NCBI GenBank assembly: GCA_012518435.1
Contig: JAAYSG010000024.1
Location: 1-53,647, forward strand
Direction: 5' to 3'
Length of the DNA stretch: 53,647 bases
Origin: Bacillota bacterium
GTDB lineage: Bacteria; Bacillota; DTU030
The notes below the pieces were generated by a model. The model saw only the letters and a program-made list of their open reading frames with translations, had not been told where the DNA came from and searched no databases. The position numbers and the translations under genes were made by a program. Below, piece after piece: positions 3,383-46,591 of this stretch (position 1 is the stretch's first letter; every line of letters begins with the position of its first letter).

Positions 3383-4681
3383 TTAGTCTTTACAAGCCGC
3401 GACAATCTTGCCCTTTTCAAATACTAGGTTGCCGCCCACAATGGTGGCAACCACCTTCCCAGTCAATTGCCGTCCACCAAAGGGAGTATTTCTACTCTTG
3501 GAGAAAAATTTTTCCGGCTGGACTTCCCACTGGGCGGAGGGATCAAATATGGTAATGTCAGCATCTGCGCCAACGGCGAGGGTACCTTTATCTAAGCCCA
3601 TGATAGCTGCGGGTATCGAGGTAAGCTTGGCCAGGGCCTGGAGGGGTGTTAAGATTCCCGGCAGGACAAGTTCTGTCCATGTAAGACCAAGGGCCGTTTC
3701 CAAGCCGATTATGCCACAGGGGGCCTCTATCAGGCCGGTAGCCTTTTCTTCCGGGGTATGGGGGGCATGGTCAGTGGCAATAACATCCAGGGTCCCATCG
3801 GCTAATCCTTGGCAAACCGCGGCCACATGGGCCCTGGTTCTGAGGGGTGGATTCATTTTGGCATTGGCACCTTGGGTCAACAATGCCTCATCCGTGAGGG
3901 AGAAATGATGGGGGGTGGCCTCGGCAGTAACCTTAATTCCTTGGGCCTTGGCCGCCCTAATCATGGCGATGGACGTGGCGGAACTGACATGTTGAATATG
4001 CACGTGTTGTCCGGTTTGTTTTGCCAGTAAAATATCCCTGGCCACGTGGATATCTTCGGCTATGGTCGGCATGCCGCGTATGCCCAGGCCTTCGGCAACT
4101 TTGCCTTCATTTATTATGGTGTCACCCACCAGGGAAAGTTGTCCACAATGGGTGATGGCCGGAAGACCAAGTGCGCCGGCCTTTTCCATGGCCTGGCGCA
4201 TTAGGGCCGAGTCTTCTACCGGATTACCATCATCGGAATAGCCGACGACACCGGCTTCTTTGAGGGCAGCGAAGTCAGTGAGTTCTTGACCTGCCAAATC
4301 ACGGGTGACACTACCAACTGTATAGAGGTTTATTATGGCTTTACTGGCTGCACGGGCGTAAAATTCCTCCACAAGCTTGGGCGAATGGATGGCCGGCTTT
4401 GTGTTGGCCAAACAAACTGCACTGGTGAAACCGCCCGCGGCCGCGGCCCGGCTTCCGGAGGCCAGGTCCTCTTTATGGGTAAAGCCGGGATCACGAAAAT
4501 GAACATGGATATCAACAAAGCCGGGGGAAACAATGCAGTTGGCCGCAGAAATGACCTTTTCAGCAGCCTGAACGGGTAGGTTGGCACCAATGGCAGCAAT
4601 TTTACCGTCTCGGATCCGAATATCCAGCTTCCCTTGCCTACCACTTCCGGGATCCATTACTAGACCATTTTGGATTAACAT
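3383..4681 (-). CDS. pyrC: Cyclic amidohydrolase, dihydroorotase (PyrC type I)-like
   Basis: PyrC hallmarks: SPGFVDIHVHFRDPGFTHKEDLASGSRAAAAGGFT, MNPPLR and IATDHAPH. Start moved to M40 (MLIQNGLV..., ATG at 4681), which is preceded by GGAGGAAGAGGGAA. The longer track ORF would overlap the upstream gene. Confidence 0.85.
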   Translation of the reverse strand: MLIQNGLVMDPGSGRQGKLDIRIRDGKIAAIGANLPVQAAEKVISAANCIVSPGFVDIHVHFRDPGFTHKEDLASGSRAAAAGGFTSAVCLANTKPAIHSPKLVEEFYARAASKAIINLYTVGSVTRDLAGQELTDFAALKEAGVVGYSDDGNPVEDSALMRQAMEKAGALGLPAITHCGQLSLVGDTIINEGKVAEGLGIRGMPTIAEDIHVARDILLAKQTGQHVHIQHVSSATSIAMIRAAKAQGIKVTAEATPHHFSLTDEALLTQGANAKMNPPLRTRAHVAAVCQGLADGTLDVIATDHAPHTPEEKATGLIEAPCGIIGLETALGLTWTELVLPGILTPLQALAKLTSIPAAIMGLDKGTLAVGADADITIFDPSAQWEVQPEKFFSKSRNTPFGGRQLTGKVVATIVGGNLVFEKGKIVAACKD

Positions 4682-4700
4682 TTCCCTCTTCCTCCTTAAT

Positions 4701-5933
4701 TCATTTAGCCAGATCCAATATGGTGTGTAGTAACACCTCAGCCCCCAAAACAATGTCCTCCACCGTTGCTTCTTCCCGGGGATTATGACTGATACCATCC
4801 TTACAGGGGATAAAAATAAGCCCAGTGGGTGTGATTTTAGCCATATTCATGGCATCGTGGCCAGCGCCGCTGGGCATTAACCTATAGGGAAGGGATAACT
4901 TTTGACATGCTGCTTCAATGCTGGCAATTACCGTAGAATCAAGTTGAACCGGTTTGTCCGCCGACAGTTGTTGGGTTTTGGCGCTGACATGGCGCTGCTG
5001 GCAGATTTTTTGCAATTTATCATCAATTCCCGCCACCACCCTTTGGATGCTGGCAAAATCAATGCCCCGGACGTCCACACCCAGGCTAACCTGGCCGGGA
5101 ATAACATTCATGGCCCCGGGTTTTAGGGAGAGCATCCCCACAGTGGCTACACTTTTATGGACTGCCTCCCGCCTTCCATACTCCTCGACGGCTAAAATCA
5201 ACTCGGCAGCGGCGGTGAGGGCATCCCGCCTTAAGGCCATGGGGGTGGCGCCGGAATGGTCGGCCCTTCCTTCAATTGTAATTTGCCGCCGGGTGGGGGC
5301 GGCAATGGCGGTTACTACCCCAATTTTGGCCGCTTCTTCCTCCAGGACTCGCCCCTGTTCTATGTGTACTTCCAAAAAAGCCTTTAATTCCCCCGGCTGG
5401 CGAATGGCCGATTCTATTTCCGCCAGGTTGGCTCCACTCTCCTTTGCCGCATCCCTTAGGGTAATACCAGCTGCATCCCGTAGCTGAAGATATTGTTCTA
5501 TATTGGCCGAACCGGACATGACCTTGCTCCCCAGGGTGGCAACTCCAAACCGGCTTGATTCCTCGCCAACAAAGACAATTACTTCCAGGGGGTGCCGGGT
5601 AAGTGAGCCCATTTTCCGAATGGCCCTCATCGCCGCCAGGGCCGCAACTACGCCAACTACGCCGTCAAATTTTCCCCCCTGGGGTACGGAATCCAAGTGC
5701 GATCCGGTGGCTACCGCAGGGAGGGAATCATCTTGTCCCGGCCAACGGGCTATGAGGTTGCCCAAGGCATCCTTACGGATTTTTCCGCCAAGTTGGGCTA
5801 ACCAGCGGGCCACCAGACGGTGCAATTCAGCTTCCACGGAGCTAAAGGCCAGGCGAGTAACACCGCCCCCCGGCAGAGCACCAATGGGAGACAGGGCCTC
5901 CAAATCTTGGATTATAGGCTTCTTTTCAATCAC
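4701..5933 (-). CDS. M20-family N-carbamoyl-L-amino-acid / allantoate-type amidohydrolase (AmaB/HyuC/AllC family)
   Basis: GGVTRLAFS...GNLIARWPG...ATGSHLDSVPQGGKFDGVVGVV is typical of the family. The probable start is the GTG at 5933, preceded by GAAAGGAGGGGG. The track's TTG at 5996 has no SD. Confidence 0.85.
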   Translation of the reverse strand: MIEKKPIIQDLEALSPIGALPGGGVTRLAFSSVEAELHRLVARWLAQLGGKIRKDALGNLIARWPGQDDSLPAVATGSHLDSVPQGGKFDGVVGVVAALAAMRAIRKMGSLTRHPLEVIVFVGEESSRFGVATLGSKVMSGSANIEQYLQLRDAAGITLRDAAKESGANLAEIESAIRQPGELKAFLEVHIEQGRVLEEEAAKIGVVTAIAAPTRRQITIEGRADHSGATPMALRRDALTAAAELILAVEEYGRREAVHKSVATVGMLSLKPGAMNVIPGQVSLGVDVRGIDFASIQRVVAGIDDKLQKICQQRHVSAKTQQLSADKPVQLDSTVIASIEAACQKLSLPYRLMPSGAGHDAMNMAKITPTGLIFIPCKDGISHNPREEATVEDIVLGAEVLLHTILDLAK

Positions 5934-6087
5934 TTGCTCAATCCCCCTCCTTTCAGGTATTTCCCTATCTTCTGGTAAGGCTAATAAGTACTTCAACTTG
6001 GGGGGAAAGGATACATTTGTTTAGTTAGACAAAAACCGGCCATAATCATTGGTATATTCAACAGGAAGTCCGGCCACTTTGTTTATG

Positions 6088-7740
6088 TTATTCTTGGTCC
6101 AGCTTGGCAAAGGGATATAAACCGGCAATCTTCAGGGCCAGGTATATTTGGAAGCGGTGTTCCGTGGAGGTGAGATCGCGGGATAGGAGGTTGGCGGCCT
6201 TTTCCAGGCGGTAGCGTACGGTGTTGGGGTGGATAAAAAGGGCTTTGGCTGTATCGTTAATATCTTCATTGCAGGAAAAGTAAGTGGTTAAGGTTTCGAT
6301 AAAGTTTGCCCTTTGCTTTTTATCGTAATCCCGTAGGGGGCCTAAAATCTCATCCCGCAAGGAGATAAGCTCCTTTGTATCGGGGTGGGAACATAAAAGG
6401 CGGAAAACCCCCAATTTGTCGTAGCTGTATACCCGGCCGGGGCCATGGGCTTGGCGACCAAGGGTAATGGCCTTTGTGGCCTGGCTAAAACCCAGGCCGA
6501 TATTTTCCACACCTGTTTGGGGAAGTCCGATGCCGCCGGTAAAGTGCAGGGTGGGAAAGGCCCATTTTAGGTGGAGAAGGATATTTTGGGCTAATTTATG
6601 GGCCTGGAAGGCAATTTGTTCGCCAGATTGTTCCGGTGACCAGGTGGTTATGATGACCAGACTGTTGTTGCGCAGCCCTAGAATAAAGGGTATTTTTTTA
6701 TCGCGAAGCTGGTGGCTTAAATCCCGCTGTAGTTGCCCCTTGAGAAGCTGCATTTTTTCCTCGCTGATCTTTCTTTTCCCGACCCCTATGGTGAAGACGA
6801 TGGACAAGGAGGGCTGGGATAGGTCGAGACCCAGGTAGCGGCCCCGCTCCATCATGGCCTTCTCCGATTTGAAGTCTTGGGCTATCAGTTCTTCCACAAA
6901 GCTATTTATCTGTTGGCGCTCCAATACAGTCCGGTTATAGAGGCTTATTATTTCCATGCCCAAGAGGGGGATGGTATGATCTAGGATGGCCTGACCGGTG
7001 GGTGATAAACCTTGCTCCCTTTCAAAGTGTTCCATGGTTAAGAAGGCGTGGGTGGAAGTGTGGGCCATGATGGGGATTACCAGGCAGGGAATTTTTTCGC
7101 CCCGGCGGGTGCGCAGATGGAAAAAGGGTTGGTAGGTATTGCTGAGCCTTGAGATGGTTTCCTGGGACAGGGGGTCAAAGGGAGGGGCATCCTTGTTTGT
7201 GGTTAAAACTAGACCTGAGCCGGGACATTCCAGGGTAAGATCATGTTTTAGCAGGTGCTGCAATGTTGTTAGGGCGGCCTCCAGTCCTTGATCATTTAGA
7301 ATTACCTCCTGTAGCCAGCGGAAGGCCATGTCGGCTTGGCGCAGGACCCCGGCGGTATGGTCCAGCAGACACTCCATGAGGGGGTTGATAATATCGATGT
7401 AGGCAATGTCCCTGGGAAAGCCCAGTAAGGGGAAGGACAGCCTGTTGGCGGCATCGATCATCCCGGCGGGGAGGGTTTTTACATAACGGTCGGATTTTAT
7501 AGCTAGGGCGGCACAATCGAAGCGGGCCATATCTTCCACTAATTTAACCTGGGCTTGGGGGTTATCTTTAATGCAAAAGAGGCTGGTTATGACAAAATCG
7601 TTACCCTTTAACCACTGTAAAAGATCCGGGACCTCCATGATGGTGATATTCTTAATGAGACGGTCTAGGCCATCGTGTCCCGCCACTACCCTAGACCGGG
7701 TTAAAGGGGCTATGGTAAGGGCCTTTTTCACATCAAGCAT
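6088..7740 (-). CDS. PucR-family transcriptional regulator
   Basis: It has an N-terminal purine-catabolism-regulator-like domain and a C-terminal PucR HTH (AKALFIHPNTVRYRLEKA). It is divergent from the DUF2877-fdrA operon. Confidence 0.85.
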   Translation of the reverse strand: MLDVKKALTIAPLTRSRVVAGHDGLDRLIKNITIMEVPDLLQWLKGNDFVITSLFCIKDNPQAQVKLVEDMARFDCAALAIKSDRYVKTLPAGMIDAANRLSFPLLGFPRDIAYIDIINPLMECLLDHTAGVLRQADMAFRWLQEVILNDQGLEAALTTLQHLLKHDLTLECPGSGLVLTTNKDAPPFDPLSQETISRLSNTYQPFFHLRTRRGEKIPCLVIPIMAHTSTHAFLTMEHFEREQGLSPTGQAILDHTIPLLGMEIISLYNRTVLERQQINSFVEELIAQDFKSEKAMMERGRYLGLDLSQPSLSIVFTIGVGKRKISEEKMQLLKGQLQRDLSHQLRDKKIPFILGLRNNSLVIITTWSPEQSGEQIAFQAHKLAQNILLHLKWAFPTLHFTGGIGLPQTGVENIGLGFSQATKAITLGRQAHGPGRVYSYDKLGVFRLLCSHPDTKELISLRDEILGPLRDYDKKQRANFIETLTTYFSCNEDINDTAKALFIHPNTVRYRLEKAANLLSRDLTSTEHRFQIYLALKIAGLYPFAKLDQE

Positions 7741-7908: not shown

Positions 7909-7993
7909 TTGGCCCGGCAAACTTTAGGTGCAGTAGTGCTAATGACCATCAAGGGCTGGGGATTTAAAATTTATATAGGAGGGATGACAGTCC

Positions 7994-8902
7994 ATGGATG
8001 CGGAAATTATTTCCTTTGGTTCGGGAATCGCCCGGGTGCTATCCCAGCCCGGCCTTAGGGGTAGGGTACACTCGGTATTTAAACACACGGTTAACCTAAA
8101 GATTGCAGATCGTCTGCTATCCCTCCAGCATTCAGTACTACCCAAAACCCCCTCTATGTTGTTAGTGGAGCCGGGGTTTGTTTTGGGAGATTTTCGCCTT
8201 GCTGTTGGTGACCGGGTTATGGTCAAGGAGGATAATATCGTCATCAAAGGCCATGGGTTCAAATTGGCTACTGCTCGCCGCTGGGAAGGGCAGTTGCCGG
8301 TTTATTTCACCGGGGAAGAAGAGGTAAATTTTCTTGGCAGGGAAGTGGCTAGGGCCCTGACCCTGCTTGATTTACCCCAGTTGGATTTTGGGCTCCCCGG
8401 TCATAGTGGCCAAGCAGTACCATGGCTGGAGGATCTGGTGGTGGCTGGGAATGGGGCGGGGGATGCGGCAATGATTTCGGCCCTGACCTCCCTAATTGGC
8501 TTGGGGCCAGGTTTGACACCCTCGGGGGATGATTTTTTACTTGGTTTTCTCAGCGTACTGTCCCTATTGGAAAAAGGGAACCGGCCCCGAAGTGCTTTTG
8601 CCACTGCCCTTCGCCGGAGGATAAGGGAAGGTATCCAAGATACCAGCCCCCTGAGCCGGGAATTTTTATTTTGTGCCTGTGGGGGAGAATATAGTGAACC
8701 CTTTCATGAATTATACAAGGCGGCTGGCCGCCGGGATGTGATGGGTCTTGTGCAGGCTGTCCTTTGCTTTACGCAAATAGGGCATACATCTGGGACTGCT
8801 GCCCTGGCGGGGCTCTTATACGGACTTGATTTTTGTGCGAAAGATACGGGGAGGTCTGGCGAAAATGATTATCCGCAATGTGGTGAGGAAGAACTTTTAT
8901 AA
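7994..8902 (+). CDS. DUF2877 protein (E. coli YlbF/AllH-like)
   Basis: LIGLGPGLTPSGDDFLLGFL matches the DUF2877 signature as I remember it. It sits directly upstream of fdrA, as in the fdrA-ylbE-ylbF gene set. GGAGGGA SD. Confidence 0.7.
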   Translation: MDAEIISFGSGIARVLSQPGLRGRVHSVFKHTVNLKIADRLLSLQHSVLPKTPSMLLVEPGFVLGDFRLAVGDRVMVKEDNIVIKGHGFKLATARRWEGQLPVYFTGEEEVNFLGREVARALTLLDLPQLDFGLPGHSGQAVPWLEDLVVAGNGAGDAAMISALTSLIGLGPGLTPSGDDFLLGFLSVLSLLEKGNRPRSAFATALRRRIREGIQDTSPLSREFLFCACGGEYSEPFHELYKAAGRRDVMGLVQAVLCFTQIGHTSGTAALAGLLYGLDFCAKDTGRSGENDYPQCGEEELL

Positions 8903-10427
8903 TGATTCTGTTTCCCTCATGCTTTTGTCCAGCAAGATAGGAAAGATGGCCGGGGTGAAGGAAGCCGCTGTTATGATGGCTACCGCCCACAACATAGAAA
9001 TAATGGAGCGTTCCGGTTTGTTACTTCCCGACTCTAAGGGGGCTAGCCCCAATGATATGCTCATTGCTGTTTTGGCGGAGGATGAAGAAAGTAGTGCGGC
9101 AGCCCTGGAGGCGGTGGATGAATATTTCGCTGGTGGTGGCCAAGGGGTACAGGCCGGGGATGAATTGGTGGCCAAAAGCCAGACCACTGCCTTGGGTATG
9201 CTCCCGGGGGCCAATTTATCTTTAATATCAGTCCCGGGGCCCTATGCAGCCGCCGAAGCAAAAAAAGCTCTAAATAACAAGCTGCATGTTTTCCTCTTTA
9301 GCGATAATGTAACCCTCCAGGAAGAGAAGGAGCTTAAGGATATCGCCGCGGCAAAAGGCTTGCTAATGATGGGCCCCGATTGTGGTACGGCAATTATAAA
9401 TGGTGTGGGTTTGGGTTTTGCCAACGCTGTCCCCAAGGGCCCCATAGGTTTGGTGGCGGCGGCGGGTACTGGCCTCCAGGAGGTTGCTTGTCTTATTACT
9501 GAACTAGGTGGTGGTATTTCCCAAGCCTTAGGTACAGGGGGTAGGGATATTAAAAATGCCATCGGTGGTACCACCATGCTCATGGGGCTAGCGGCCCTGG
9601 CAAGGGATCCGGCTACCAAGGTCATCGTCCTTGTTGCGAAACCACCGGAGGAAAATGTTCTGGGCAAATTAAATGTGGCCCTGCAATCCGTTAACAAACC
9701 CGTTGTCACCTGCTTTTTGGGGGCTAAGGGGGAGCTTGCCGGGGAAGGGGTCTATCCGGTGGGAAACTTGCAAGAGGCGGCCCTTAAGGCCGTTGAATTA
9801 TCAGCCCTAGGGGCAGATTCTGGTGCGGATTTTATTATATCCGCGTCCAATGTGAAGGAAATCGCTGCCGCGGAAGCAACCTGTCTTAGAACACCCCAAA
9901 GATATTTGCGGGGACTTTACTCGGGTGGAACCTTATGTTATGAGGCTCTTTTGTTGGTTAAACCCCACATCGGCAATGCCTATTCCAATGTTTCCCTAGA
10001 ACCCCACTTCCTTCTGGCTAGCCCAGATGAAAGTAAGGAGCACACCCTTCTTGATATGGGTGATGACTACTTTACCGCCGGCCGCCCTCACCCCATGATC
10101 GATCCCAGTTTAAGGGTGGAGCGGATTCGTAGGGAGGCTGCTGACCCGGAGACGGCGGTCATATTATTGGATCTGGTCCTGGGCCATGGCAGCCATAGGG
10201 ATCCCGCGGGAGCCTTGCTTCCTGCCATCCGGGAAGGCAAAAGAGAAGCCACGGCTGCTGGGCGCCATTTAAGTGTCGTGGCCTCGGTCTGTGGCACATC
10301 TTCCGATCCCCAGGGCCTGGTGGAACAGGAAGAAAAGTTGCGTACGGCTGGGGTAATTGTAATGCCCAGCAACGCCCAGGCTGTGGCAATGGCGGCGGCC
10401 ATTTTAACCAGTCATAACAAAATCTAG
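8865..10427 (+). CDS. fdrA: FdrA-family protein (succinyl-CoA-synthetase-alpha-like; AllF-like)
   Basis: The N-terminus MIIRNVVRKNFYNDSVSLMLLS parallels E. coli FdrA (MIHAFIKKGCFQDSVSLM...), and a GPDCGTAIINGVGLGFAN CoA-ligase-type motif is present. ATG at 8865 follows GGGGAGG and overlaps the DUF2877 gene by 38 nt. Confidence 0.85.
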   Translation: MIIRNVVRKNFYNDSVSLMLLSSKIGKMAGVKEAAVMMATAHNIEIMERSGLLLPDSKGASPNDMLIAVLAEDEESSAAALEAVDEYFAGGGQGVQAGDELVAKSQTTALGMLPGANLSLISVPGPYAAAEAKKALNNKLHVFLFSDNVTLQEEKELKDIAAAKGLLMMGPDCGTAIINGVGLGFANAVPKGPIGLVAAAGTGLQEVACLITELGGGISQALGTGGRDIKNAIGGTTMLMGLAALARDPATKVIVLVAKPPEENVLGKLNVALQSVNKPVVTCFLGAKGELAGEGVYPVGNLQEAALKAVELSALGADSGADFIISASNVKEIAAAEATCLRTPQRYLRGLYSGGTLCYEALLLVKPHIGNAYSNVSLEPHFLLASPDESKEHTLLDMGDDYFTAGRPHPMIDPSLRVERIRREAADPETAVILLDLVLGHGSHRDPAGALLPAIREGKREATAAGRHLSVVASVCGTSSDPQGLVEQEEKLRTAGVIVMPSNAQAVAMAAAILTSHNKI

Positions 10428-10442
10428 TGGGGGGTTGAAGGT

Positions 10443-10616
10443 ATGTCTTCACCTAATGAATTGTTTACCCAGCCCTTGGCAGTCATTAACATAGGCTTGC
10501 AAATTTTCGCCGAGGCCCTGCAAGTGCAGGGGGTGTCTTGCGTGCATGTGGACTGGCGCCCCCCCGCCGGTGGGGATGCCGATCTCATGGCCATCTTGGC
10601 CAGGTTGAATAGTTAA
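10443..10616 (+). CDS. Unannotated 57-aa ORF within the fdrA-DUF1116 operon
   Basis: It is below the ORF-track cutoff. The sequence is MSSPNELFTQPLAVINIGLQIFAEALQVQGVSCVHVDWRPPAGGDADLMAILARLNS. It starts 15 nt after the fdrA stop and ends 24 nt before the next start, with a G-rich SD 8 nt upstream. Confidence 0.5.
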   Translation: MSSPNELFTQPLAVINIGLQIFAEALQVQGVSCVHVDWRPPAGGDADLMAILARLNS

Positions 10617-10640
10617 ATAGGGGTAAGGAAGGTGTTGGAG

Positions 10641-11885
10641 ATGAAAAATATAATTGATAAGGCTAATCAGGAGGCTTATGAACGCATTGACAGTGCCCAG
10701 GTTTTCCTGACCGACATTAAATATGCCCGGGAAGTATTACCGACTTTAACCGAATATGTAATAGGACATGCCGGGCCCCCCATTGCCTGGCCCGATATGT
10801 GTGGGCCCATGCAGGGGGCAGTAATTGGGGCCATTAAGTACGAGGGCTGGGCTGATGGCGATGATGAAGCCATGTCTCTAATAGAATCGGGGCGGATCAG
10901 ATTTGTTTCCAACCACAGCATGGGTGCTGTGGGGCCCATGACAGGTATGATAACCATGTCTATGCCCTTGTATGAGGTTCTTAATGAAACATTTGGCAAC
11001 CGGGCCTATTGCACCTTTAATGAAGGTTTAGGGCGGGTAATGCGTTTTGGAGCCAATGATGGGGAAGTGGTGGCCCGTCTTCAGTGGCTGGAAAAGACCT
11101 TGGCCCCGGGGTTAAAGAAGGCCCTAATGCTTTCTGGCCCCATCAATCTCAAGGTTATAATTACCCAGGCCTTGGCCATGGGGGATGAAATGCACCAACG
11201 TAATATTGCCGCTTCCTTGTTGTTTGGCCGAGCCATTATGCCCTATTTAACGCAGGTGGACATGGGTTCAGAAGGGGCAAAAATTGTTCAGTTTATACTG
11301 GGTAATGAACAATTTTTCCTCAACCTGGCCATGGCGGCGGCCAAGGCAACTATGGATCCGGCCCATGGGATTAAAAATTCAACCCTGGTGACGGCCATGA
11401 GCCGCAATGGTACACAGTTTGGAATAAGGGTAAGCGGATTGGGTGATACCTGGTTTGAGGCCAAGCCGGAAATGCCCCAGGGGCTTTATTTCCCCGGGTT
11501 TGGTCCAGAGGATGCCAACCCGGATATGGGGGATAGTGCCATTTTGGAATGTATGGGTATCGGGGGTTTTGCCATGGGTTCGGCCCCGGCTGTGGTCCGT
11601 TTTCTGGGGGCTGGCACTGTGCAGGATGCCTTGGGCTATACACAGGAAATGGGGGAAATAACCGTTGGTAAAAGCAACAGTATTTTAATGCCGGCCTTAA
11701 ATTTTACCGGGGTACCCATGGGAATTGATATAAGAAAAGTGGTGGAGACGGGGATACAACCGGTTATTAATACTGGTATAGCCCATAAAAGAGCGGGACT
11801 GGGCCAGGTGGGTGCTGGAATTGTTAAGGCACCTCTAGATTGCTTTATAAAGAGTCTAGTTGCCTTCAACAAAACATTGAATTGA
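10641..11885 (+). CDS. DUF1116 protein (YlbE/AllG-like), paralog 1
   Basis: HAGPPIAWPDMCGPMQGAVIGA...GAVGPMTGMIT...NRAYCTFNEGLGRVMRFGA aligns with my recollection of E. coli YlbE. ATG at 10641 lies 7 nt after GGAAGGTG; the GTG at 10632 is an alternative. Confidence 0.85.
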   Translation: MKNIIDKANQEAYERIDSAQVFLTDIKYAREVLPTLTEYVIGHAGPPIAWPDMCGPMQGAVIGAIKYEGWADGDDEAMSLIESGRIRFVSNHSMGAVGPMTGMITMSMPLYEVLNETFGNRAYCTFNEGLGRVMRFGANDGEVVARLQWLEKTLAPGLKKALMLSGPINLKVIITQALAMGDEMHQRNIAASLLFGRAIMPYLTQVDMGSEGAKIVQFILGNEQFFLNLAMAAAKATMDPAHGIKNSTLVTAMSRNGTQFGIRVSGLGDTWFEAKPEMPQGLYFPGFGPEDANPDMGDSAILECMGIGGFAMGSAPAVVRFLGAGTVQDALGYTQEMGEITVGKSNSILMPALNFTGVPMGIDIRKVVETGIQPVINTGIAHKRAGLGQVGAGIVKAPLDCFIKSLVAFNKTLN

Positions 11886-11899
11886 GGGGGTGAAGGACC

Positions 11900-13153
11900 A
11901 TGAAGGCAAAGATTGCCGCAGCCAATGCCACTGCCCTAAAGAGGATGTTGGATTCGGATATTGCTTGGGTTGATGTTCAATCGGCCCATGAGGTAATACC
12001 GGGAATGGACAAGTACACCCTTTATCATGCGGGTCCCCCAATCACCTTCCGGGAAATGTGCCAACCCATGCAGGGGGCAATAATAGGTGCTTTAAAGTAT
12101 GAAGGGTTGGTGACAACCGCCAAGGAGGGGAGGGAACTGGCTGCTTCGGGGAAAATAAGGTTTTCCCCTTGCCATCATGTAAATGCCGTTGGCCCCATGA
12201 CCGGTATTATTTCCTACAGTATGCCCCTCTTGATCATTGAAAACCGAACCTTTGGAAATTTTGCCTACAGCACCATCAATGAAGGTGGTGGTGATGTACT
12301 GCGCTTTGGGGCCTTTTCTGACAAGGCTGTCCGAAGACTAAAGTGGATGGAGGAAGTACTATCGCCGGCCCTAAAGGCCGTTGTCCGGGAGTTGGGGGGC
12401 CTCAACCTCAAGGTTCTTATGGCCCAGGCCCTACAGATGGGCGATGAACTCCATATGCGCAACCAGGCGGCCTCAACCCTTTTTTTAAAAATTCTTTTGC
12501 CCCCCTTGGTTAAGGTTGGGGGTGCCAGGGCCCAACTGGAGGAAATAATCGCCTTTTTAACCACTGACAATGAACAGTTCTTTCTTAATTTCGCCATGGC
12601 CGCCCACAAGGCCATGGCAGATTCTGCCCACGGTGTAGATTATTCTACCTTGGTTACTGCCATAGCCAGAAATGGTGTCGATGTGGGTATCAGGGTAAGT
12701 GGTCTGGGAGACCAGTGGTTTACCGATGCGGCACCACCGGTGAAAGGGCTATATTTTTCCGGCTTTTCCCCCAAGGATGCCAATCCGGACTTGGGTGATA
12801 GTGCCATTATGGAAACCTGTGGTCTAGGGGGGTTTGCCATGGCTGCTGCCCCAGCCATAGTGCGATTTTTGGGGGCGGGAACTTATAGAGATGCCCTTGG
12901 GTATACCCAGGATATGTACGAAATAACCCTTGGTGAAAACGGGCATTATACCATGCCTACCCTGGATTTTCGTGGTACCCCCTTGGGGATAGATATTCGC
13001 AAGGTAGTGGAGACGGGTATTACCCCCGCAATAAATACCGCCATTGCCAGTAGGGAGGCGGGGGTCGGCATGATCGGAGCTGGGGTCGCCAAGGCACCAC
13101 TGTCCATGTTTGTCAAAGCCCTGGTGGCCATGGCTGACAAGTTGGGATTATAG
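11900..13153 (+). CDS. DUF1116 protein (YlbE/AllG-like), paralog 2
   Basis: The track ORF has the same length as that of paralog 1 and is roughly half identical by eye. It retains SPCHHVNAVGPM, as in E. coli YlbE (IPCHHVNAVGPM). GAGGGGGTGAAGG SD. Confidence 0.85.
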   Translation: MKAKIAAANATALKRMLDSDIAWVDVQSAHEVIPGMDKYTLYHAGPPITFREMCQPMQGAIIGALKYEGLVTTAKEGRELAASGKIRFSPCHHVNAVGPMTGIISYSMPLLIIENRTFGNFAYSTINEGGGDVLRFGAFSDKAVRRLKWMEEVLSPALKAVVRELGGLNLKVLMAQALQMGDELHMRNQAASTLFLKILLPPLVKVGGARAQLEEIIAFLTTDNEQFFLNFAMAAHKAMADSAHGVDYSTLVTAIARNGVDVGIRVSGLGDQWFTDAAPPVKGLYFSGFSPKDANPDLGDSAIMETCGLGGFAMAAAPAIVRFLGAGTYRDALGYTQDMYEITLGENGHYTMPTLDFRGTPLGIDIRKVVETGITPAINTAIASREAGVGMIGAGVAKAPLSMFVKALVAMADKLGL

Positions 13154-13194
13154 GTGCCGGGAAAAACAAAGAAAAAAAGGAGGTTTTCCTTGCT

Positions 13195-14292
13195 ATGATG
13201 GATGTAGGTGTTTACCGCCTTCCCATGGCGGGTCCGGATGATGTATCTGAATTGGCTGCCCTCATCGAGGCTGGGGAAGTGAACCCCCATGAGATATGTG
13301 CAATTATTGCCCAAACTGAAGGGGATGGCTATGCTAGGGGATATAGTGCCCTATCCTTTCAATTGTTGTTGGCGGAAAAACTGGCGATGACCAGGGAGGA
13401 AGTATGGGATCGGATCCCCATGTTGATGATTGGCCTTACGGGGGGACTAATGAGCCCCCACTATACCGTGTTTACCCGGAGGGAAATTGATGCTCCGGCG
13501 GCCGCCGAAAAGCGTCTTTCCATTGGCATCAAGGACACCCGTGTTCTTTTGCCGGAAGAATATGGGACTGTGGTCCAGGTTAAGGAGGTGGCCAAGGCGG
13601 TGCGGGCAGCAATGGCCGAGGCCGGGATTAGTTCGCCGGCGGATGTGCACTGTGTGGAGGTAAAATGCCCCAATCTGACGGCCAAGAGGATTGCGGATGC
13701 GGAAGGCCGGGGCCAGAAGGTAGTGAGTACCAACTTGGCTGAAGCTGGGTCCAAGTCCAAGGGGGCATCTGCCCTGGGTGTAGCCCTGGCCCTGGGTGAG
13801 ATAAGGGAAGGGGATCTAAGCAATGAGGCCATCTGCAATAACTGGGGCCTGTATTCCAAGGTAGCGTCTACTTCTGCAGGCAATGAACAGGTTGCCTGTC
13901 GTGTCGTACTTTTGGGTAATTCCCTTAGGGCGGTGAGCAAATTCAAAATCGGCAGTGGTATTATGCAAGACACCTTGGATATTGCCGGGGCCAAGGATGC
14001 CTTCCGGGCCGCCGGGATAAATATTGCGGCTGGGATTTCCCCTAAGGATAGGGAACGCATAGCCACGGTATTTATCAATGCCGGGGCCGATGCCACTGGC
14101 TACATTCGGGGGCGTCGTACCACCATGAAAAGTGATTTTCTAGCCGCCTATGCCGGTATCTTTGCCAAGGCTGTTATCAACGCCATTGTGGGCTCACTTA
14201 TTGGTGATACCATGATTCTGGCATCGGCTGGTTTTGAACACCAGGGGCCGCTGGGGGCAAATTTAATAGCCGCCATTGCAAAGGTGGACTAG
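13195..14292 (+). CDS. Ring-opening amidohydrolase family protein (cyanuric acid hydrolase AtzD/TrzD / barbiturase family)
   Basis: Collinear with AtzD as I remember it: V(Y/F)R(L/I)P...TEG(D/N)G...SPH(Y/H)TVF...VKCP...GASALGVALALGE...FEHQGP. AGGAGG SD. Confidence 0.8.
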   Translation: MMDVGVYRLPMAGPDDVSELAALIEAGEVNPHEICAIIAQTEGDGYARGYSALSFQLLLAEKLAMTREEVWDRIPMLMIGLTGGLMSPHYTVFTRREIDAPAAAEKRLSIGIKDTRVLLPEEYGTVVQVKEVAKAVRAAMAEAGISSPADVHCVEVKCPNLTAKRIADAEGRGQKVVSTNLAEAGSKSKGASALGVALALGEIREGDLSNEAICNNWGLYSKVASTSAGNEQVACRVVLLGNSLRAVSKFKIGSGIMQDTLDIAGAKDAFRAAGINIAAGISPKDRERIATVFINAGADATGYIRGRRTTMKSDFLAAYAGIFAKAVINAIVGSLIGDTMILASAGFEHQGPLGANLIAAIAKVD

Positions 14293-14296
14293 GAAG

Positions 14297-15478
14297 ATGT
14301 TGGATATATTACTTAAAGGGGTTAATATAAAGGGAAATATATTGGATGTGGGTATTGCCCAGGGGGAATTTGTCCTTCTTGAGCCCCACATTGGGGTTTC
14401 GGCCCAAAGGGAGTTGGACTGTCGGGGGTGGCTGGCAGTACCTGGCCTGGTCGATTGTCATTTGCATTTGGATAAAAGCCTCCTCATGGAGAGGGCCCAT
14501 TATGTGGATGTCAGTGGGCCAGAGAAGGGGGCCCTCACCCGGGCCGAAAAAGCCACCTTTACAGAGGCCGATATAAGGGCCCGGGCTGAAAAGGTAATAA
14601 AGGCGGGTTTTGCCGCCGGCAATCTGCTTATTCGCACCAGTGTGGATGTGGATCCCTTGGTTGGTACCACCGGGGTGAAGGCGCTTTTGGCCCTGAAGGA
14701 AAAATATGCTGGCCTGGTGAATATTCAGGTGGCGGCCTTTGCCCAGGAGGGATTTGAAAAATATCCTGCCAGCGTAGACCTCCTCCGACAGGCTCTGGAT
14801 ATGGGGGCAGATCTGGTCGGTGGTCATACCATAGTTGATACCGATGGCCGCCGCCATATTGATACTATTTTAAATTTAGCTCGGGAATATGGGGTGGAAG
14901 CAGAATTCCATTTGGATGAATCGGGGAAGAGGGAACATTATTTACTGCCTTATGTTACCCAAAGGATGAAGGAAATGGGCCTCAAAGGGCGTGTTACGGG
15001 AATACATTGCTGTACCCTAAGTGCCCTTACCCCTGAGGAGAGAAAAGAAGCGCTGGATTTTATGGTGAAAGGCTCCCTAAAGGTTATAAGTGCACCAACG
15101 GCCATTTCAACTCGAAATATTGCGCCTGTAAAGGAATTGTTGGCGGCAGGTCTCTTGGTGGGCATTGGATCTGACAATGTCGCTGACTTTTTTAACCCCA
15201 TTGGTAGTGGAGATATTAAGCAGGCTGCGCTACTTTTGGCCTATGTGCAGCGTTTCTTTACTTTTGAATTGGTTGGTCAGCTATGGGACATGCTCACATA
15301 CCGGGGGGCAGCCCTGCTGGGATATTCGGGGTATGACATTGCCCTTGGGCAAAGGGCTGATATTACGTTGTTTGAAGCCTTAAATCCACGGGATGTTTTG
15401 GCAAGGCAGGCTTCACCCGCGCTGATAATACGGGGAGGCCAGATCCACTATAGAAAAAATGGAGACCAATGGTGGTGA
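14297..15478 (+). CDS. Amidohydrolase, AtzC / cytosine-deaminase (CodA)-like
   Basis: The motifs GLVDCHLHLDKS (HxH metal motif), IQVAAFAQEGF, DLVGG, GRVTGIHC and GSDN are collinear with AtzC/CodA. ATG at 14297 (MLDILLKG) follows AAGGTGGA. The track start at 14276 overlaps the previous gene. Confidence 0.8.
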   Translation: MLDILLKGVNIKGNILDVGIAQGEFVLLEPHIGVSAQRELDCRGWLAVPGLVDCHLHLDKSLLMERAHYVDVSGPEKGALTRAEKATFTEADIRARAEKVIKAGFAAGNLLIRTSVDVDPLVGTTGVKALLALKEKYAGLVNIQVAAFAQEGFEKYPASVDLLRQALDMGADLVGGHTIVDTDGRRHIDTILNLAREYGVEAEFHLDESGKREHYLLPYVTQRMKEMGLKGRVTGIHCCTLSALTPEERKEALDFMVKGSLKVISAPTAISTRNIAPVKELLAAGLLVGIGSDNVADFFNPIGSGDIKQAALLLAYVQRFFTFELVGQLWDMLTYRGAALLGYSGYDIALGQRADITLFEALNPRDVLARQASPALIIRGGQIHYRKNGDQWW

Positions 15479-15507: not shown

Positions 15508-15539
15508 GGCTGTTGATGTCCGTCAACAGCCTGTTTTTA
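15508..15539 (+). terminator. Rho-independent terminator after the amidohydrolase operon
   Basis: A perfect 9-bp stem (GGCTGTTGA / TCAACAGCC) is followed by TGTTTTTA. Confidence 0.65.
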
Positions 15540-15579: not shown

Positions 15580-16797
15580 ATGGGTATGGCAACCCATAAT
15601 ACACGACGACAGTCAAAGGAAAGAGGAGTTATGTCAATAGCGGCCCTCCTATCTTTGGGTGCCCTTTTTATGTACGCGGATCGAACAGTTTTGTACCCTA
15701 TGCTGGAGGTGATCGCCGCCGAGTTTAATTTGAGTGGCACGGCCACGGGGTTCATTACCAGCACTTATTTTCTCCTTTATGTTATCGTGCAGGTTCCAGC
15801 CGGACTCTTGGGCGATACCCTTGGCTTAAAAAAGGTTTTACTGGTCTTTTATTTCCTGGGTGGGGGGGCTCTATTTCTTTTGGGTCTTCTTGCCCAGAAC
15901 TATTTATTTCTTATTGTGTTGGTAGGCTTACATGGTATAGGCATGGGGGCCTATTACCCTACTTCTTATGGCATAAACATTGGTACAGTACCTAAGGAGC
16001 AGCGGGGATTGGCTTCGGCCGTTATAAATTCGGGAATGTCCATCGGGACTGCCTTGGGACTAGTCTTGGCAGGGCCCATATATCTTAAAACCGGGAATTG
16101 GCGGTGGCCCTTCCTCCTTTTGGCCCTGCCAACCATGCTCATTCCCCTTTTGTTCCAGCGCTACTTACCGGACCGGCAGGAGGCTAGCCCCAAGGCGGGG
16201 GGCGGAGACCAGACGGTGGATTTAAAGAGGATATTGAGGGATAAGGATCTTTGGGCCCTAAACCTATCGGCTTTTTGTGCAGGGTATGGTTTTTGGGTTG
16301 CCCTTACTTGGGGGCCAAGTTTTTTTGCCACTGAACGCTCCCTGGGTCTAACCAAGGCAGGCATATTTACGGCCATACCAGCTTTGGCGGCTATCCCAGC
16401 AGCTCTATTTGTTGGCCGCCTTTCCGATAGGGTAGGGCGGCGCCGGCTAGCCCTTATCCTTTATCCACTCCAGGCCATTACAATTTTTGCCTTGGCCTAT
16501 GTAACTTCTGTGCCTGTCTTGATAGCCACGTTAATTTTGTATGGTGTTATCGGGCGTACTGTTTCCGATACGGTTATAATATCTTGGTTCGGTGATCATG
16601 TGGCGGAAAAAAGCCCGGCTGCCCTGGGGGCTGCCGTGGGAGTGTTCAACCTGGTGGGTATGTCAGCTGCGGTAATTGCCCCTTTGATCAGCGGAATGGT
16701 TAAGGATATGACCGGAAGCCTGGCCGGTGCCTTTTATTTGGGTGCTTTAATTGTCCTGGCGGGGATGATCTGTACTTGGATCACTTCGGAGACTTAA
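15580..16797 (+). CDS. MFS transporter
   Basis: About 12 predicted hydrophobic helices, a typical MFS loop (GRLSDRVGRRR) and a GGAAAGGAGG SD. Confidence 0.85.
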   Translation: MGMATHNTRRQSKERGVMSIAALLSLGALFMYADRTVLYPMLEVIAAEFNLSGTATGFITSTYFLLYVIVQVPAGLLGDTLGLKKVLLVFYFLGGGALFLLGLLAQNYLFLIVLVGLHGIGMGAYYPTSYGINIGTVPKEQRGLASAVINSGMSIGTALGLVLAGPIYLKTGNWRWPFLLLALPTMLIPLLFQRYLPDRQEASPKAGGGDQTVDLKRILRDKDLWALNLSAFCAGYGFWVALTWGPSFFATERSLGLTKAGIFTAIPALAAIPAALFVGRLSDRVGRRRLALILYPLQAITIFALAYVTSVPVLIATLILYGVIGRTVSDTVIISWFGDHVAEKSPAALGAAVGVFNLVGMSAAVIAPLISGMVKDMTGSLAGAFYLGALIVLAGMICTWITSET

Positions 16798-16834
16798 AAC
16801 CATATTTCTTTTCCTTGGGATGGAGGGACAAATT

Positions 16835-18577
16835 ATGCGCAACCTAACCGTAAAGGACTTCCTATCCCTCAAACCAGCTGCCGAAATACGTTTGGTTGCT
16901 GGGGCAAAGGGCCAGGAAAGGGTCATCACCAGTGTCAATATTATGGACAACCCCGATACGGCCAGATGGTTATCGGAAGGGGAATTACTCTTGACCACCG
17001 GTTTTGTCTTTGTGGATGATCCAGCCTTACAGGCTAACCTAATCCAACAATTGGCCCAACGGCGCTGTGCTGGTTTGGGTCTTAAAATTAAGAGGTATTT
17101 TGAAACCATCCCCCAGCAAATGATAGACCAGGCGGAGGCCTGCGATTTCCCTTTGCTGGAATTGCCCTTTGAGTACTCCTTATCGCAGATTAGCTTTGCT
17201 GTGTATCAGGAAATTCTAAACCGCCAGGCGGCTCTCTTGAGTAAATCCAGGGATATACACAACTGCCTTACCAGGGTCAGCCTCGCCGGCGGGTCTCTGG
17301 AGGAAATCGTCCAAACCCTGGTGGAACTAATTGGTAATCCGGTATTGGTGTTGGATAGCCAATGGCGCTTGTTGGCATCTGGGGATTTGCCCAAAAATGA
17401 ACCATCGTTAGAGGAGTGTTTGCCCCTTATAAAGGGGCAACGTCTGTTTTCTGAGGAGTTTATTAGTGATATCCCCCAAGAAGCCGGCTCCTGGGAAAGA
17501 TCCATCAAAAGACAGTACCCCTGCCAAAGATTTGATGTTGCCTGCCGTATAAAGCCTGTTGCAGCTACGGGTAACATATATGGCTATATTGTGGTTTGGG
17601 AGAGTGTTAGGAAGTTGACCCAGCTTGATTATGTGGCAGTGGAGCACGCTGCGACGATAATAGCCCTGGAGCGCCTGAAGGAGCAGGCTATCGCGGAAAC
17701 CAAGCATCGCCTACGCCGTGATTTTTTCGATGATTTGCTGGCGGGTAAAATTGAATCGGTAAATGCCATTAGGACCTTGGGTGAAATACACGGCCTTTGC
17801 ACAGATAAACCCTATTGCTGTCTGGTCATAGAGCTCTATCCCGGGCAAAGGACCCAATCATCCGGATCATGGGCCATGGATACCTATTATCCTAAGGAGG
17901 GGATGGTAAGCACCCCTTCCTTGGAAAAGGTTATTAGCTGGCGGGTAGAAAGGGAACTGAGTAGGGCGGGTAATGGTGCGGTGGTTATAGTCCGCACCAA
18001 TAGGATAATTGTCTTTCTGCCCCTTTCCTCCCAGGCGGATAGAAGGACAATTAGGGATAATAGCAAGGATTTGGCTGGCAGTTTGTCTCGGGATATTAGG
18101 GAGGATCATCCTTGGGTAAGGTTTTCCATTGGTATCGGTCGGCCCTGCCCCAGCATATTGGACCTAAAGCAGAGCTTTATGGAAGCCTTGGAGGCCATCA
18201 AAATGAGCAGAAAGGTCGCCGCCACCCATCCCATAGCCCATTTTGATGATTTTCTTATCTATCACCTTTTGGATTCCGGGGGGAATGCTGGGGAATTGGA
18301 AAATTTCTTTCAGAACACCGTGGGCAAATTGGTTTCCTTTGATGAGGAAAACAATACCGATCTGGTCAAAACCTTGGAAGCCTTCTTTGCCAGCCGGGGC
18401 AATATTAGTAGCGCTGCCAAAGAACTTTTTATCCATCGCAACACCATGATGTATCGCCTGGATAGGATCAAGTTGATCCTGGGGGTGGATTTGGCCGATC
18501 CGGAACAACTATTGGAGTTAAACCTGGGTCTTAAAATCATGAACTTATTGCTAGTGAAAAAAATGGATTCCCAATAA
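16835..18577 (+). CDS. PucR-family transcriptional regulator (second copy)
   Basis: The C-terminal HTH reads AKELFIHRNTMMYRLDRI. The N-terminus MRNLTVKDFLSLKPAAEIRLVAG is typical. ATG at 16835 follows GGAGGGA, which lies inside the longer track ORF. Confidence 0.85.
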   Translation: MRNLTVKDFLSLKPAAEIRLVAGAKGQERVITSVNIMDNPDTARWLSEGELLLTTGFVFVDDPALQANLIQQLAQRRCAGLGLKIKRYFETIPQQMIDQAEACDFPLLELPFEYSLSQISFAVYQEILNRQAALLSKSRDIHNCLTRVSLAGGSLEEIVQTLVELIGNPVLVLDSQWRLLASGDLPKNEPSLEECLPLIKGQRLFSEEFISDIPQEAGSWERSIKRQYPCQRFDVACRIKPVAATGNIYGYIVVWESVRKLTQLDYVAVEHAATIIALERLKEQAIAETKHRLRRDFFDDLLAGKIESVNAIRTLGEIHGLCTDKPYCCLVIELYPGQRTQSSGSWAMDTYYPKEGMVSTPSLEKVISWRVERELSRAGNGAVVIVRTNRIIVFLPLSSQADRRTIRDNSKDLAGSLSRDIREDHPWVRFSIGIGRPCPSILDLKQSFMEALEAIKMSRKVAATHPIAHFDDFLIYHLLDSGGNAGELENFFQNTVGKLVSFDEENNTDLVKTLEAFFASRGNISSAAKELFIHRNTMMYRLDRIKLILGVDLADPEQLLELNLGLKIMNLLLVKKMDSQ

Positions 18578-18934
18578 GGCATTACCCAAAAGAACAATGA
18601 AAGGGACTTTGGGCAAGGCATATTGTGAAATATGGAGCAAAATATTGGGAATGTTGCACCACTGCACCCCTAATTTTTAGGCAGGATGCCCATGACGGGA
18701 GCTGCCTTGGTGCGATATTCTTCTAGGTAAGAAGGCCTCTGGACGGGTATTTGTATAGAAATACAATTAGGGCGCCAATGCTTTGTAGCAAATAACAGAA
18801 GAAAAGGGCCATGTTTGATAGAATTATAACTATATGCTAAATGCTAACAATTGCAAGAAAGGAGGGAGGGTAGCCAACCAATTCCATTCATTGTTGGGGT
18901 GGACAATAACTAAAACTTAAAGGGGGTTTATTAC

Positions 18935-19984: not shown

Positions 19985-20065
19985 TTATTTGCCAAGCCAG
20001 GCACCCAATGTTACCGGGGTGGCCTGGCTTGGCCTAAAATATAAAAAAGGATGTGGAGGACAACA

Positions 20066-21858: not shown

Positions 21859-21966
21859 ATGGGGTTCTGAGTTTCCATCACCTGGCGTAACCCGGGCAAT
21901 TATAAAAATAGGTGCCCTGAGCAGAATTAATGGTTTCTGGAGAAAGGTGATAAAGGGGGAAAGCAC

Positions 21967-23825: not shown

Positions 23826-24138
23826 GTCTGGGAAGTTATTGGCAACCATGGTGTGAAAGTTGGATGTTGAATTTTGCCCTACTGGTTTTCTTCTTTTTTT
23901 CCTTTGTTCAACCTGCCCAGGGTCTGATCTCTTTTTCGGGCACGGTGCCGATGACACCTTTGCCCCCTTGCCTTAAGCTGAAGGGGGAATGAAAATAGGG
24001 GCCCATTACCATTTTATGCCCATGAAATTAGAGTATGGGAGCTGGGATCCCCATGGTGCTAAAGGGCTCTACTTGACAAATCATCCCCCATAAGGGCTAT
24101 TTTTCCTTATGGTTGGGTGCTGGAGTGGAGGGATGGAT

Positions 24139-25165: not shown

Positions 25166-25266
25166 TCCCTTATTAGCAATAATAAGTAGGAGAAATATTT
25201 TTAGAATTTATATCCCTTTTTGTCGCCCTTATTATCTCCAGCCCAAATTTAAAAGGAGAGGTGTTT

Positions 25267-46586: not shown

Positions 46587-46591
46587 TCTAG

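Follow-up and report, generated by a model that had tools for sequence, protein, structure and literature searches.

A divergent ring-opening amidohydrolase gene in one operon with AllFGH-like genes: a candidate phosphorolytic route for cyclic ureides in a Bacillota bacterium

Introduction

In a 53,647-nucleotide contig of a Bacillota bacterium (GTDB lineage DTU030; GenBank assembly GCA_012518435.1, contig JAAYSG010000024.1), called the window below and taken at its full length, an operon at positions 7994-15478 encodes both relatives of the Escherichia coli oxamate carbamoyltransferase AllFGH and a ring-opening amidohydrolase of the AtzD/TrzD/barbiturase family. Here we compare this operon with the described systems and with its relatives in other genomes, and propose that it may serve the catabolism of a cyclic ureide.

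The closest characterised counterpart of the complex belongs to the anaerobic allantoin pathway of E. coli. AllFGH phosphorolyses the N-acylurea oxalurate to oxamate and carbamoyl phosphate (PMC11326118); the pathway then leads to ATP with AllK as kinase partner (PMC11326118, PMC9843812). The same FdrA, DUF1116 and DUF2877 families, and a kinase, are present in the window. A second E. coli cluster, yahE-yahF-yahG-yahI-yahJ, resembles the operon in encoding DUF2877, FdrA-like and DUF1116 proteins (the last with an N-terminal module that is a free 57-aa protein in the window), a carbamate-kinase-like protein and an amidohydrolase of the CodA/AtzC superfamily, and differs from it in lacking a ring-opening amidohydrolase; we found no literature on its function.

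On the side of ring opening, true cyanuric acid hydrolases (CAHs) have three Ser-Lys dyads and three arginines in a three-fold symmetric site (PMC6557486, PMC4051656, PMC9118981), and a single substitution, S79A or S333A, costs ~10^8-fold in activity (PMC4051656). The domain-B dyad and Arg52 are the proposed catalytic core of the whole family (PMC4051656, PMC6557486). Aerobic CAH pathways hydrolyse biuret and allophanate (BiuH or AtzE, then AtzF), whereas the window encodes a complex of the phosphorolytic type. Barbiturase, from the oxidative pyrimidine pathway of Rhodococcus, is of the same enzyme family as the window amidohydrolase and carries Gln at the position of Azorhizobium CAH Arg188 (PMC4051656). 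Its product ureidomalonate, an N-acylurea one CH2 longer than oxalurate, is hydrolysed in that pathway rather than phosphorolysed, and the window lacks the uracil dehydrogenase gene of that system.

The two enzyme types come nearest to each other in comammox Nitrospira and ammonia-oxidising archaea, where allFGHK lies beside biuH/trtA (PMC12625717). These loci associate AllFGHK with the metabolism of biuret and triuret, which are acylureas; they have no atzD, and their authors read the oxalurate and biuret pathways as separate, with no ring-opening or ATP link. In the searchable literature we found no description of an AllFGH-type complex coupled to ring-opening amidohydrolases, in keeping with the preliminary description of the window, which knew of no pathway joining the two systems; nor did the searched literature mention an AllHFG/carbamate kinase context for Moorella-type CAHs. 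The component families and the logic from phosphorolysis to ATP are already known from the allantoin pathway (PMC11326118, PMC9843812); the coupling to ring opening would be the new part.

Results

Gene content of the operon

The region 7994-15478 is a single tight plus-strand operon of seven genes, with intergenic spacing of -38 to +41 nt as seen from the open reading frame (ORF) listing and profile searches. It starts with an AllH-like subunit (DUF2877; 7994-8902; PF11392, 83.6 bits) and an AllF/FdrA-like subunit (8865-10427; NCBIfam PRK06091, 502 bits against a cutoff of 433; Pfam Ligase_CoA, PF00549), whose reading frame opens at 8826 and likely starts at ATG 8865 (MIIRNVV...). A 57-aa protein (10443-10616), matching positions 508-555 of the FdrA model, is followed by two AllG-like paralogs (DUF1116): AllG1 at 10632-11885 (PF06545, 295 bits; orthogroup G1 across Firmicutes loci) and AllG2 at 11900-13153 (PF06545, 296 bits; orthogroup G2). 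Next comes the AtzD/TrzD/barbiturase-family amidohydrolase, of Toblerone fold (13195-14292; PF09663, 417 bits over positions 6-362). The start of the last gene overlaps it by 17 nt; this gene encodes an AtzC-like/CodA-like metal-dependent deaminase (14276-15478), whose best solved structure is AtzC at 187 bits.

A sigma-70-like promoter match just 5' of the first gene (7942-7970, plus strand; 9/12 positions in a consensus scan, weak alone) and a terminator-like hairpin at the end (15508-15531, plus strand; 10-bp stem, then a T-rich tail) agree with these operon bounds. A stand-alone carbamate kinase gene lies at 24109-25086 on the plus strand and passes the cutoff of the TIGR00746 arcC equivalog (383.5 bits against 358), a model for which carbamate kinase function is well established. 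The preliminary description had listed this operon gene set and placed such a kinase 9 kb downstream; all of it is present.

Recurrence of the linkage

A pattern-based scan, with one genome per species, gave 80 loci with relatives of the window amidohydrolase, which we searched together with a Natronincola locus (L001) for AllF/AllG and other partners, using the window proteins. In Firmicutes/Mollicutes-type loci AllF/AllG are found in 21/28, 14 of these at ≤150 nt and on the same strand; the seven without them all have <600 nt of upstream sequence, so that the ratio is effectively 21/21. Proteobacteria-type loci (one from Flavobacteriaceae included) have AllF/AllG in 19/23, mostly divergent and 160-620 nt apart. 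This gene order differs from that of Firmicutes, which means that the link survived rearrangement. The AtzD-like-AllFG linkage goes far beyond chance, recurring across phyla and gene orders. The co-occurrence across genomes of the ring-opening amidohydrolase with FdrA, DUF1116, DUF2877 and carbamate kinase, which the preliminary description had put forward, is strongly borne out by these counts.

Carbamate kinase is encoded at ≤10 kb in many loci. The gene is within the operon in Natronincola ferrireducens and others, and inside or beside the cluster in loci L001, L005, L018, L086, L088, L093, L094, L097 and others. Most Firmicutes relatives have a PucR gene bordering the cluster, and TRAP or TAXI-TRAP transporters and LctP-family permeases recur in this group. 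Formamidase-family (FmdA-like) genes occur in 16 loci.

Canonical cyanuric acid hydrolase clusters

As a control, we searched with the characterised CAH of Moorella thermoacetica and inspected the gene contexts of its close homologs. AllH-AllF-AllG adjoin the CAH gene in 7/7 distinct contexts: Zhaonella formicivorans (94% identical to the Moorella enzyme), Moorella sp. Hama-1, Alkaliphilus crotonatoxidans, Senegalia massiliensis, Bacillus sp. FJAT-18017, an Acholeplasmataceae metagenome-assembled genome (with an isochorismatase inside the operon) and a widely sampled Bacillota bacterium. The Moorella and Zhaonella CAHs are 86-94% identical to the characterised enzyme, and the CAH clade of these clusters has the complete K-R-S x3 signature. 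Usual companions are carbamate kinase, PucR, a xanthine/uracil-family permease and a polytopic membrane protein of 411-435 aa. The last, without Pfam match, was considered as a missing enzyme; being polytopic and hydrophobic, with a weak DcuC-like match, it is rather a transporter. Most clusters contain no other catabolic enzyme gene, three having an additional amidohydrolase or isochorismatase. From the minimal clusters, the ring hydrolase, the AllHFG complex and the kinase appear sufficient.

In E. coli draft assemblies (GCA_051840185.1, GCA_032658605.1), a seven-gene CAH set lies between a Tn3-family transposase and IS1, in the order transporter-CAH-permease-AllH-AllF-AllG-carbamate kinase-LysR, with a dfr gene adjacent (L094 8706-18069, also L095). 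With these flanks the set behaves as a mobile unit; megablast gave no match to it in complete E. coli genomes or PLSDB plasmids, so it is seen in drafts only. Transporter types follow the cluster type, with carboxylate-type systems (TRAP, TAXI-TRAP, LctP) beside the window type and nucleobase permeases beside the CAH type.

In locus L097, a gene of the isochorismatase family, to which BiuH and TrtA belong, lies at 11866-12729 inside a CAH-AllH-AllF-AllG-carbamate kinase operon, an arrangement reminiscent of the allFGHK-biuH neighbourhoods of the nitrifier loci described above. Given this gene, the complex may act on allophanate arising from biuret hydrolysis.

Active site of the ring-opening amidohydrolase

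The 13195-14292 product is a full-length family match (TIGR02714, 336 bits against a cutoff of 153) and has seven relatives in the PDB, with E = 9e-98 to Moorella CAH 6bum and 6e-57 to barbiturase 5hwe. Against the NCBIfam CAH equivalog NF052395 it scores 359.3 bits, marginally under the cutoff of 360. It shares with AtzD, TrzD and the Moorella CAH the Toblerone fold family, the domain-B dyad (Moorella Ser231/Lys161) and Arg52; across the clade the domain-B Lys is kept in 119/120 members, Ser or Thr in 120/120 and Arg52 in 119/120. It differs from the CAHs in lacking the domain-A dyad, the domain-C Lys, the domain-B Arg and the C-terminal motif.

Aligned with Moorella CAH, the nine active-site positions of the window protein read Q40/R52/I83/K161/K193/S231/N299/R/S347. 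The replacements Lys40 to Gln, Ser83 to Ile, Arg193 to Lys and Lys299 to Asn are shared by the window protein and 118/118 scored clade members, so that the clade reads Q-R-I-K-K-S/T-N-R-S where Moorella-type homologs read K-R-S-K-R-S-K-R-S in 120/120. The counterpart of the CAH motif SGGxExQGPxGGGP in the window protein is SAGFEHQGPLGANL; the motif is absent, S-A-G-F-E-H-Q-G-P-L-G-A-N-L standing against S-G-G-x-E-x-Q-G-P-x-G-G-G-P (PMC9118981). At the Azorhizobium CAH Arg188 position, Lys replaces the Gln of barbiturase in 120/120 clade members. A 'Bacillus subgroup' with Lys at this position, to which PMC4051656 assigns no function, is probably the window clade; we found no reported function for it in the searched literature.

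Judged by these residues, the window enzyme is neither a canonical CAH nor a barbiturase; it belongs to a divergent subfamily with the domain-B dyad only. The preliminary description had called it an amidohydrolase of the cyanurate/barbiturate type; it lacks the defining signatures of both CAH and barbiturase. Because the proposed catalytic core of the family is retained while the other dyads are lost, the enzyme is probably an active ring-opening amidase with an asymmetric substrate, and cyanurate is an unlikely one. A substrate of the barbiturase type, itself asymmetric, would fit its asymmetric active site. To our knowledge the family acts only on six-membered rings, so creatinine/N-methylhydantoin and allantoin, which we considered as substrates, are remote candidates. 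NCBI and JGI label close relatives (including P0007) 'cyanuric acid amidohydrolase'; on the divergent clade this is probably an over-annotation, systematic around the equivalog cutoff.

The AtzC-like deaminase

His60, His62, His217 and the catalytic His249 (AtzC numbering) are present in 31/31 cluster-linked homologs of the deaminase, and the metal ligand Asp303 in 30/31, with Asn in the remaining one; the window protein keeps all five. In AtzC, Lys65, Gln160 and Asn304 hydrogen-bond the 2,4-dioxo ring of ammelide, which His219 and Trp309 also bind (PMC4577212). The first three are conserved in 31/31 cluster-linked homologs; His219 is changed to Asp with Glu next to it (H-x-D-E), and Trp309 to Phe. 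We take H-x-D-E to be the CodA pattern. The window deaminase is about one third identical to AtzC, as estimated by eye, and 27% identical to YahJ, which differs in having Ser, not Asn, at AtzC position 304. The whole pattern fits an enzyme that hydrolytically strips an amino or amidine group from a compound resembling a dioxo-azine, either before or after ring opening.

The carbamoyltransferase-like complex and its 57-aa module

The window AllH is 25% identical to E. coli YahE over 289 aa and 30% to AllH over 115 aa. AllF is 43% identical to YahF and 38% to E. coli AllF; AllG1 and AllG2 are 47-48% identical to E. coli AllG, 45-47% to YahG and 55% to each other. The window subunits (38-48% identical to E. 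coli AllFGH) are thus no nearer to AllFGH than to the Yah paralogs. The preliminary description had spoken of oxamate-carbamoyltransferase-type genes: all three subunit families are indeed in one operon, but orthology to E. coli AllFGH is unclear, the window proteins being at least as close to YahEFG. Other differences from the E. coli system are the two AllG paralogs, the free 57-aa module, the missing allD/allC context and the coupling of the set to a ring-opening amidohydrolase and a deaminase. Profile searches found no allD, allC or (S)-ureidoglycine aminohydrolase gene in the window.

In a neighbour-joining tree the Firmicutes G1 and G2 groups stand apart from E. coli AllG, which joins an extra AllF/AllG pair that loci L019 and L026 possess besides their AtzD-linked set. 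Window-type clusters of Firmicutes have two AllG orthogroups, whereas CAH-type clusters have one tail-fused AllG of ~470 aa; the AllF/G proteins encoded beside CAH give slightly better scores with YahF/G than with AllF/G. The complex thus diversifies together with the ring hydrolase, which favours a functional partnership of the two and specificities that differ from that for oxalurate.

The 57-aa protein is 48% identical to the C-terminus of E. coli AllF and 41% to the N-terminus of YahG. An in-frame TAG divides AllF from this ORF, which has its own ribosome-binding site and ATG, and a 56-57 aa ORF is found at the same place in L001, L088 and L091. Selenocysteine insertion or read-through at the AllF stop was ruled out from the TAG codon, the separate ribosome-binding site and ATG, and the split kept in relatives; the boundary is a natural split. 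Free in these four loci, the module is C-terminal on AllF in E. coli, and N-terminal on YahG and on the ~470-aa AllG of CAH-type clusters. Its occurrence either alone or fused to AllF or AllG hints that it might bridge these two subunits in the complex.

Neighbouring genes and other features

Divergent from the operon, a PucR-family regulator (6088-7740, minus strand; Pfam PucR, GGDEF_2 and HTH_30) is the first gene of a minus-strand unit that continues with genes for an M20 carbamoylase-like protein (4701-5996) and a dihydroorotase-like protein (3383-4798). Downstream on the plus strand are a major facilitator superfamily (MFS) transporter (15580-16797; PF07690, 196 bits), found at the same position in L001 and L004, a second PucR-family regulator (16820-18577; Pfam PucR, GGDEF_2 and HTH_30) and a TRAP transporter DctP/DctQ/DctM of the carboxylate-uptake type (18935-21858; Pfam). 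Rfam models at gathering thresholds gave no riboswitch in the window and 15 related loci, one tRNA being the only match.

The minus-strand unit 3383-7740 (PucR/M20/dihydroorotase-like), together with the plus-strand TRAP and PyrK/PyrD (DHOD-B type) genes of 18935-23734, resembles reductive orotate catabolism of the Clostridium oroticum type. In the closest relative, L004, the operon likewise has these M20 and dihydroorotase-like genes beside it. Directly after the carbamate kinase, 25261-26736 encodes a soluble FAD protein like flavocytochrome c/fumarate reductase, and has a separate terminator-like hairpin at 26825-26852. As an enoate or fumarate reductase, this protein may provide an electron sink. 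Further on, 30326-32770 encodes a fused LigB(Memo-like)-AMMECR1 protein followed by a radical SAM protein, presumably the AmmeMemoRadiSam gene pair, and is unrelated to the operon. A second, unrelated catabolic island at 38010-52980 comprises an IclR regulator, a LarA-like protein of the lactate racemase family, Amidohydro_2, an AAT-family acyltransferase/hydrolase, a second TRAP system, three M20 peptidases and a D-2-hydroxyacid dehydrogenase.

Cyanobacterial loci (L030, L032, L050, L077 and others) often have two AtzD-like paralogs each. Neighbours of their AtzD-like genes are a GntR regulator, HbpS/GlcG-like proteins, a PyrE-like phosphoribosyltransferase, an EamA exporter and NMT1-type binding proteins. 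In L027 and L034, the AtzD-like gene ends an apparent pyrimidine biosynthesis operon, recognised from gene sizes and order, with only the dihydroorotase-like and PyrE-like members profiled. Of the neighbour clusters without Pfam match, cluster 14 is a shadow ORF on the opposite strand of the AtzD-like gene in a high-GC locus; clusters 21 and 29 are presumed to be of the same kind and were disregarded.

Discussion

We estimate at about 60% the probability that the operon is a self-contained catabolic module for a urea-containing N-heterocycle, or cyclic ureide, that yields ATP by phosphorolysis. The compound would be taken up by the MFS or TRAP transporters under the control of the PucR-type regulators. 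The AtzC-like deaminase would, optionally, turn an amino-substituted ring into its oxo form, and the divergent Toblerone-fold amidohydrolase, following the chemistry of its family, would open the ring by hydrolysis and release an N-acylurea similar to carboxybiuret, ureidomalonate or oxalurate. By homology to the E. coli oxamate carbamoyltransferase, AllF, the 57-aa protein, AllG1, AllG2 and AllH would then move the terminal carbamoyl group to phosphate, giving carbamoyl phosphate and an amide. With ADP, carbamate kinase would convert carbamoyl phosphate to ATP, NH3 and CO2. The scheme is built on comparative genomics: the genes, their operon, the active-site residues and the linkage across phyla are observed, whereas the catalytic steps and the substrate are inferred from them.

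In the window the substrate is probably not cyanuric acid but an asymmetric ring, the candidates being barbiturate-like triones, which would pass through ureidomalonate to malonamate, and 2,4-dioxo-1,3,5-triazines such as 5-azauracil or oxonate. On chemical reasoning of our own, oxonate could give N-carbamoyl-oxamidine and, through an amidine hydrolase, oxalurate; 5-azauracil could give formylurea, which would fit the FmdA-like genes of 16 loci. In the canonical clusters, cyanurate would be opened to carboxybiuret, then split into carbamoyl phosphate and allophanate, and allophanate into carbamoyl phosphate and carbamate. In nature, cyanurate, parabanate and oxalurate can come from oxidised guanine and urate (PMC12623156), an origin that fits the PucR regulators.

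Several observations weigh against such a module. AllF/AllG are absent from the same-clade loci of Cyanobacteria (0/24) and Bacillales (0/6), 30 in all, and coupling is therefore not obligatory. The window kinase lies 9 kb from the operon in a separate transcription unit; the ring hydrolase lacks two of the three Ser-Lys dyads and one CAH-required Arg; and in the accessible part of PMC11326118, AllFGH kinetics are reported only for oxalurate and oxamate. Proteobacterial loci seldom have the AtzC-like gene, which suggests that deamination would be an accessory feeder step and not part of the core. The loci of the aerobic Bacillales relatives keep the AtzD-like, AtzC-like and PucR genes and have, in addition, genes for an ABC transporter of the NMT1 type, an isochorismatase like BiuH and an amidase related to AtzE; this isochorismatase and amidase set, of the kind that hydrolyses biuret-type acylureas, looks like a hydrolytic alternative to AllFGH. 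Alternation of the hydrolytic set with the AllFGH/kinase set would be expected if both act on one ring-opened acylurea product. The preliminary description had proposed ring opening followed by phosphorolytic cleavage of an acylurea for ATP: the gene linkage, its extension to the CAH clade and the hydrolytic alternation favour that scheme, but cyanurate is an unlikely substrate of the window enzyme and the orthology of the complex to AllFGH is unclear.

The complex could simply serve oxalurate derived from allantoin or allantoate, the AtzD- and AtzC-like genes being an unrelated nucleobase branch brought alongside by shared PucR regulation. One locus speaks for this directly: in L091 the cluster AllF-56aa-AllG-AtzD-like-AtzC-like, with AllH and a second AllG not within 10 kb, is followed at 17201-20341 by AllC (696 bits), (S)-ureidoglycine aminohydrolase (339 bits) and AllD (602 bits). 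PucR regulators are moreover ubiquitous, and the M20 gene upstream in the window is of the allantoate-amidohydrolase/carbamoylase subfamily. We regard this explanation as unlikely, since allC/allD are nearby in only 1 of ~45 AllFG-linked loci and the window has neither an allD nor a ureidoglycine aminohydrolase gene. Most CAH clusters and the insertion-sequence-flanked E. coli cassette have no other enzyme gene, L019 and L026 hold a separate E. coli-type AllF/AllG besides the AtzD-linked set, and the adjacency is gene to gene rather than at the level of an island.

The two views would be reconciled, for the window type, if the ring-opened product were oxalurate itself and the complex a true oxamate carbamoyltransferase. 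By our chemical reasoning parabanate could be opened directly, or oxonate opened and decarboxylated to N-carbamoyl-oxamidine, on which the AtzC-like protein would act as amidine hydrolase. Such a route would use the only substrate demonstrated for AllFGH (PMC11326118) and would account for the carboxylate-type transporters (TRAP, TAXI-TRAP, LctP). It would also explain why one of three carbonyl-binding sites is lost, why the AtzD-like and AtzC-like genes are so tightly paired and why allC/allD lie beside the cluster in L091; oxidised guanine or urate is a source of both parabanate and oxalurate (PMC12623156). Nothing, however, marks oxonate or parabanate as significant natural substrates, the window AllF/G are no nearer to E. 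coli AllF/G than to YahF/G, and the canonical CAH clusters, whose product is carboxybiuret/biuret, are left unexplained. The family, as far as we know, is also confined to six-membered rings. We therefore hold this variant to be quite unlikely.

That the window enzyme is a plain CAH, in an operon degrading cyanuric acid or ammelide, would agree with its equivalog score of 359.3 against 360, with the database names of its close relatives and with gene order, the AtzC-like/AtzD-like pair mirroring the atzC-then-atzD order of known pathways from ammelide through cyanurate to ring opening. The Gln, Ile, Lys and Asn that occupy the Lys40, Ser83, Arg193 and Lys299 positions in 118/118 clade members, the ~10^8-fold loss on changing S79 or S333 to Ala in a true CAH (PMC4051656) and the altered C-terminal motif (PMC9118981) make it very unlikely. 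Least probable of all, and by our estimate only a slight chance, is that the ring-opened product is no substrate of the FdrA/DUF1116/DUF2877 proteins, which would work, for instance, as an ATP- or CoA-dependent ligase or carboxylase before ring opening. FdrA does have succinyl-CoA-synthetase-like domains and the Yah paralogs are uncharacterised; yet the sole characterised member acts as a carbamoyltransferase (PMC11326118), carbamate kinase recurs as a partner, and the structural study of the Moorella CAH, an established hydrolase, describes no cofactor-dependent activation step (PMC6557486).

Returning to the proposed ATP-yielding module, a broader and more tentative generalisation, which we place somewhat below even odds, is that Toblerone-fold amidohydrolases, together with a carbamoyltransferase of the AllFGH/YahEFG type and carbamate kinase, make up a module that is widespread and moves horizontally, by which anaerobes could obtain substrate-level phosphorylation from cyclic ureides, the window holding a second, substrate-shifted version for an asymmetric ring. 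The minimal module would then break cyanuric acid down completely, with carboxybiuret and allophanate as intermediates, to give 3 CO2, 3 NH3 and ≤2 ATP, and would need neither biuret nor allophanate hydrolases.

Whatever its substrate, a large clade is at present named 'cyanuric acid amidohydrolase' without the residues that CAH activity requires, which is a problem for annotation. If the proposal is true, it gives a pathway context to the CAHs of anaerobes such as Moorella, which have been studied structurally and for the treatment of pool water, and adds an ATP-yielding phosphorolytic route to a catabolism of N-heterocycles that is described only as hydrolytic for these ring products. Cyanuric acid disappears readily under anoxic conditions, and a phosphorolytic route may help to explain this loss. 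It would also extend the newly assigned AllFGH enzyme class beyond oxalurate and suggest a testable function for E. coli yahEFGIJ.

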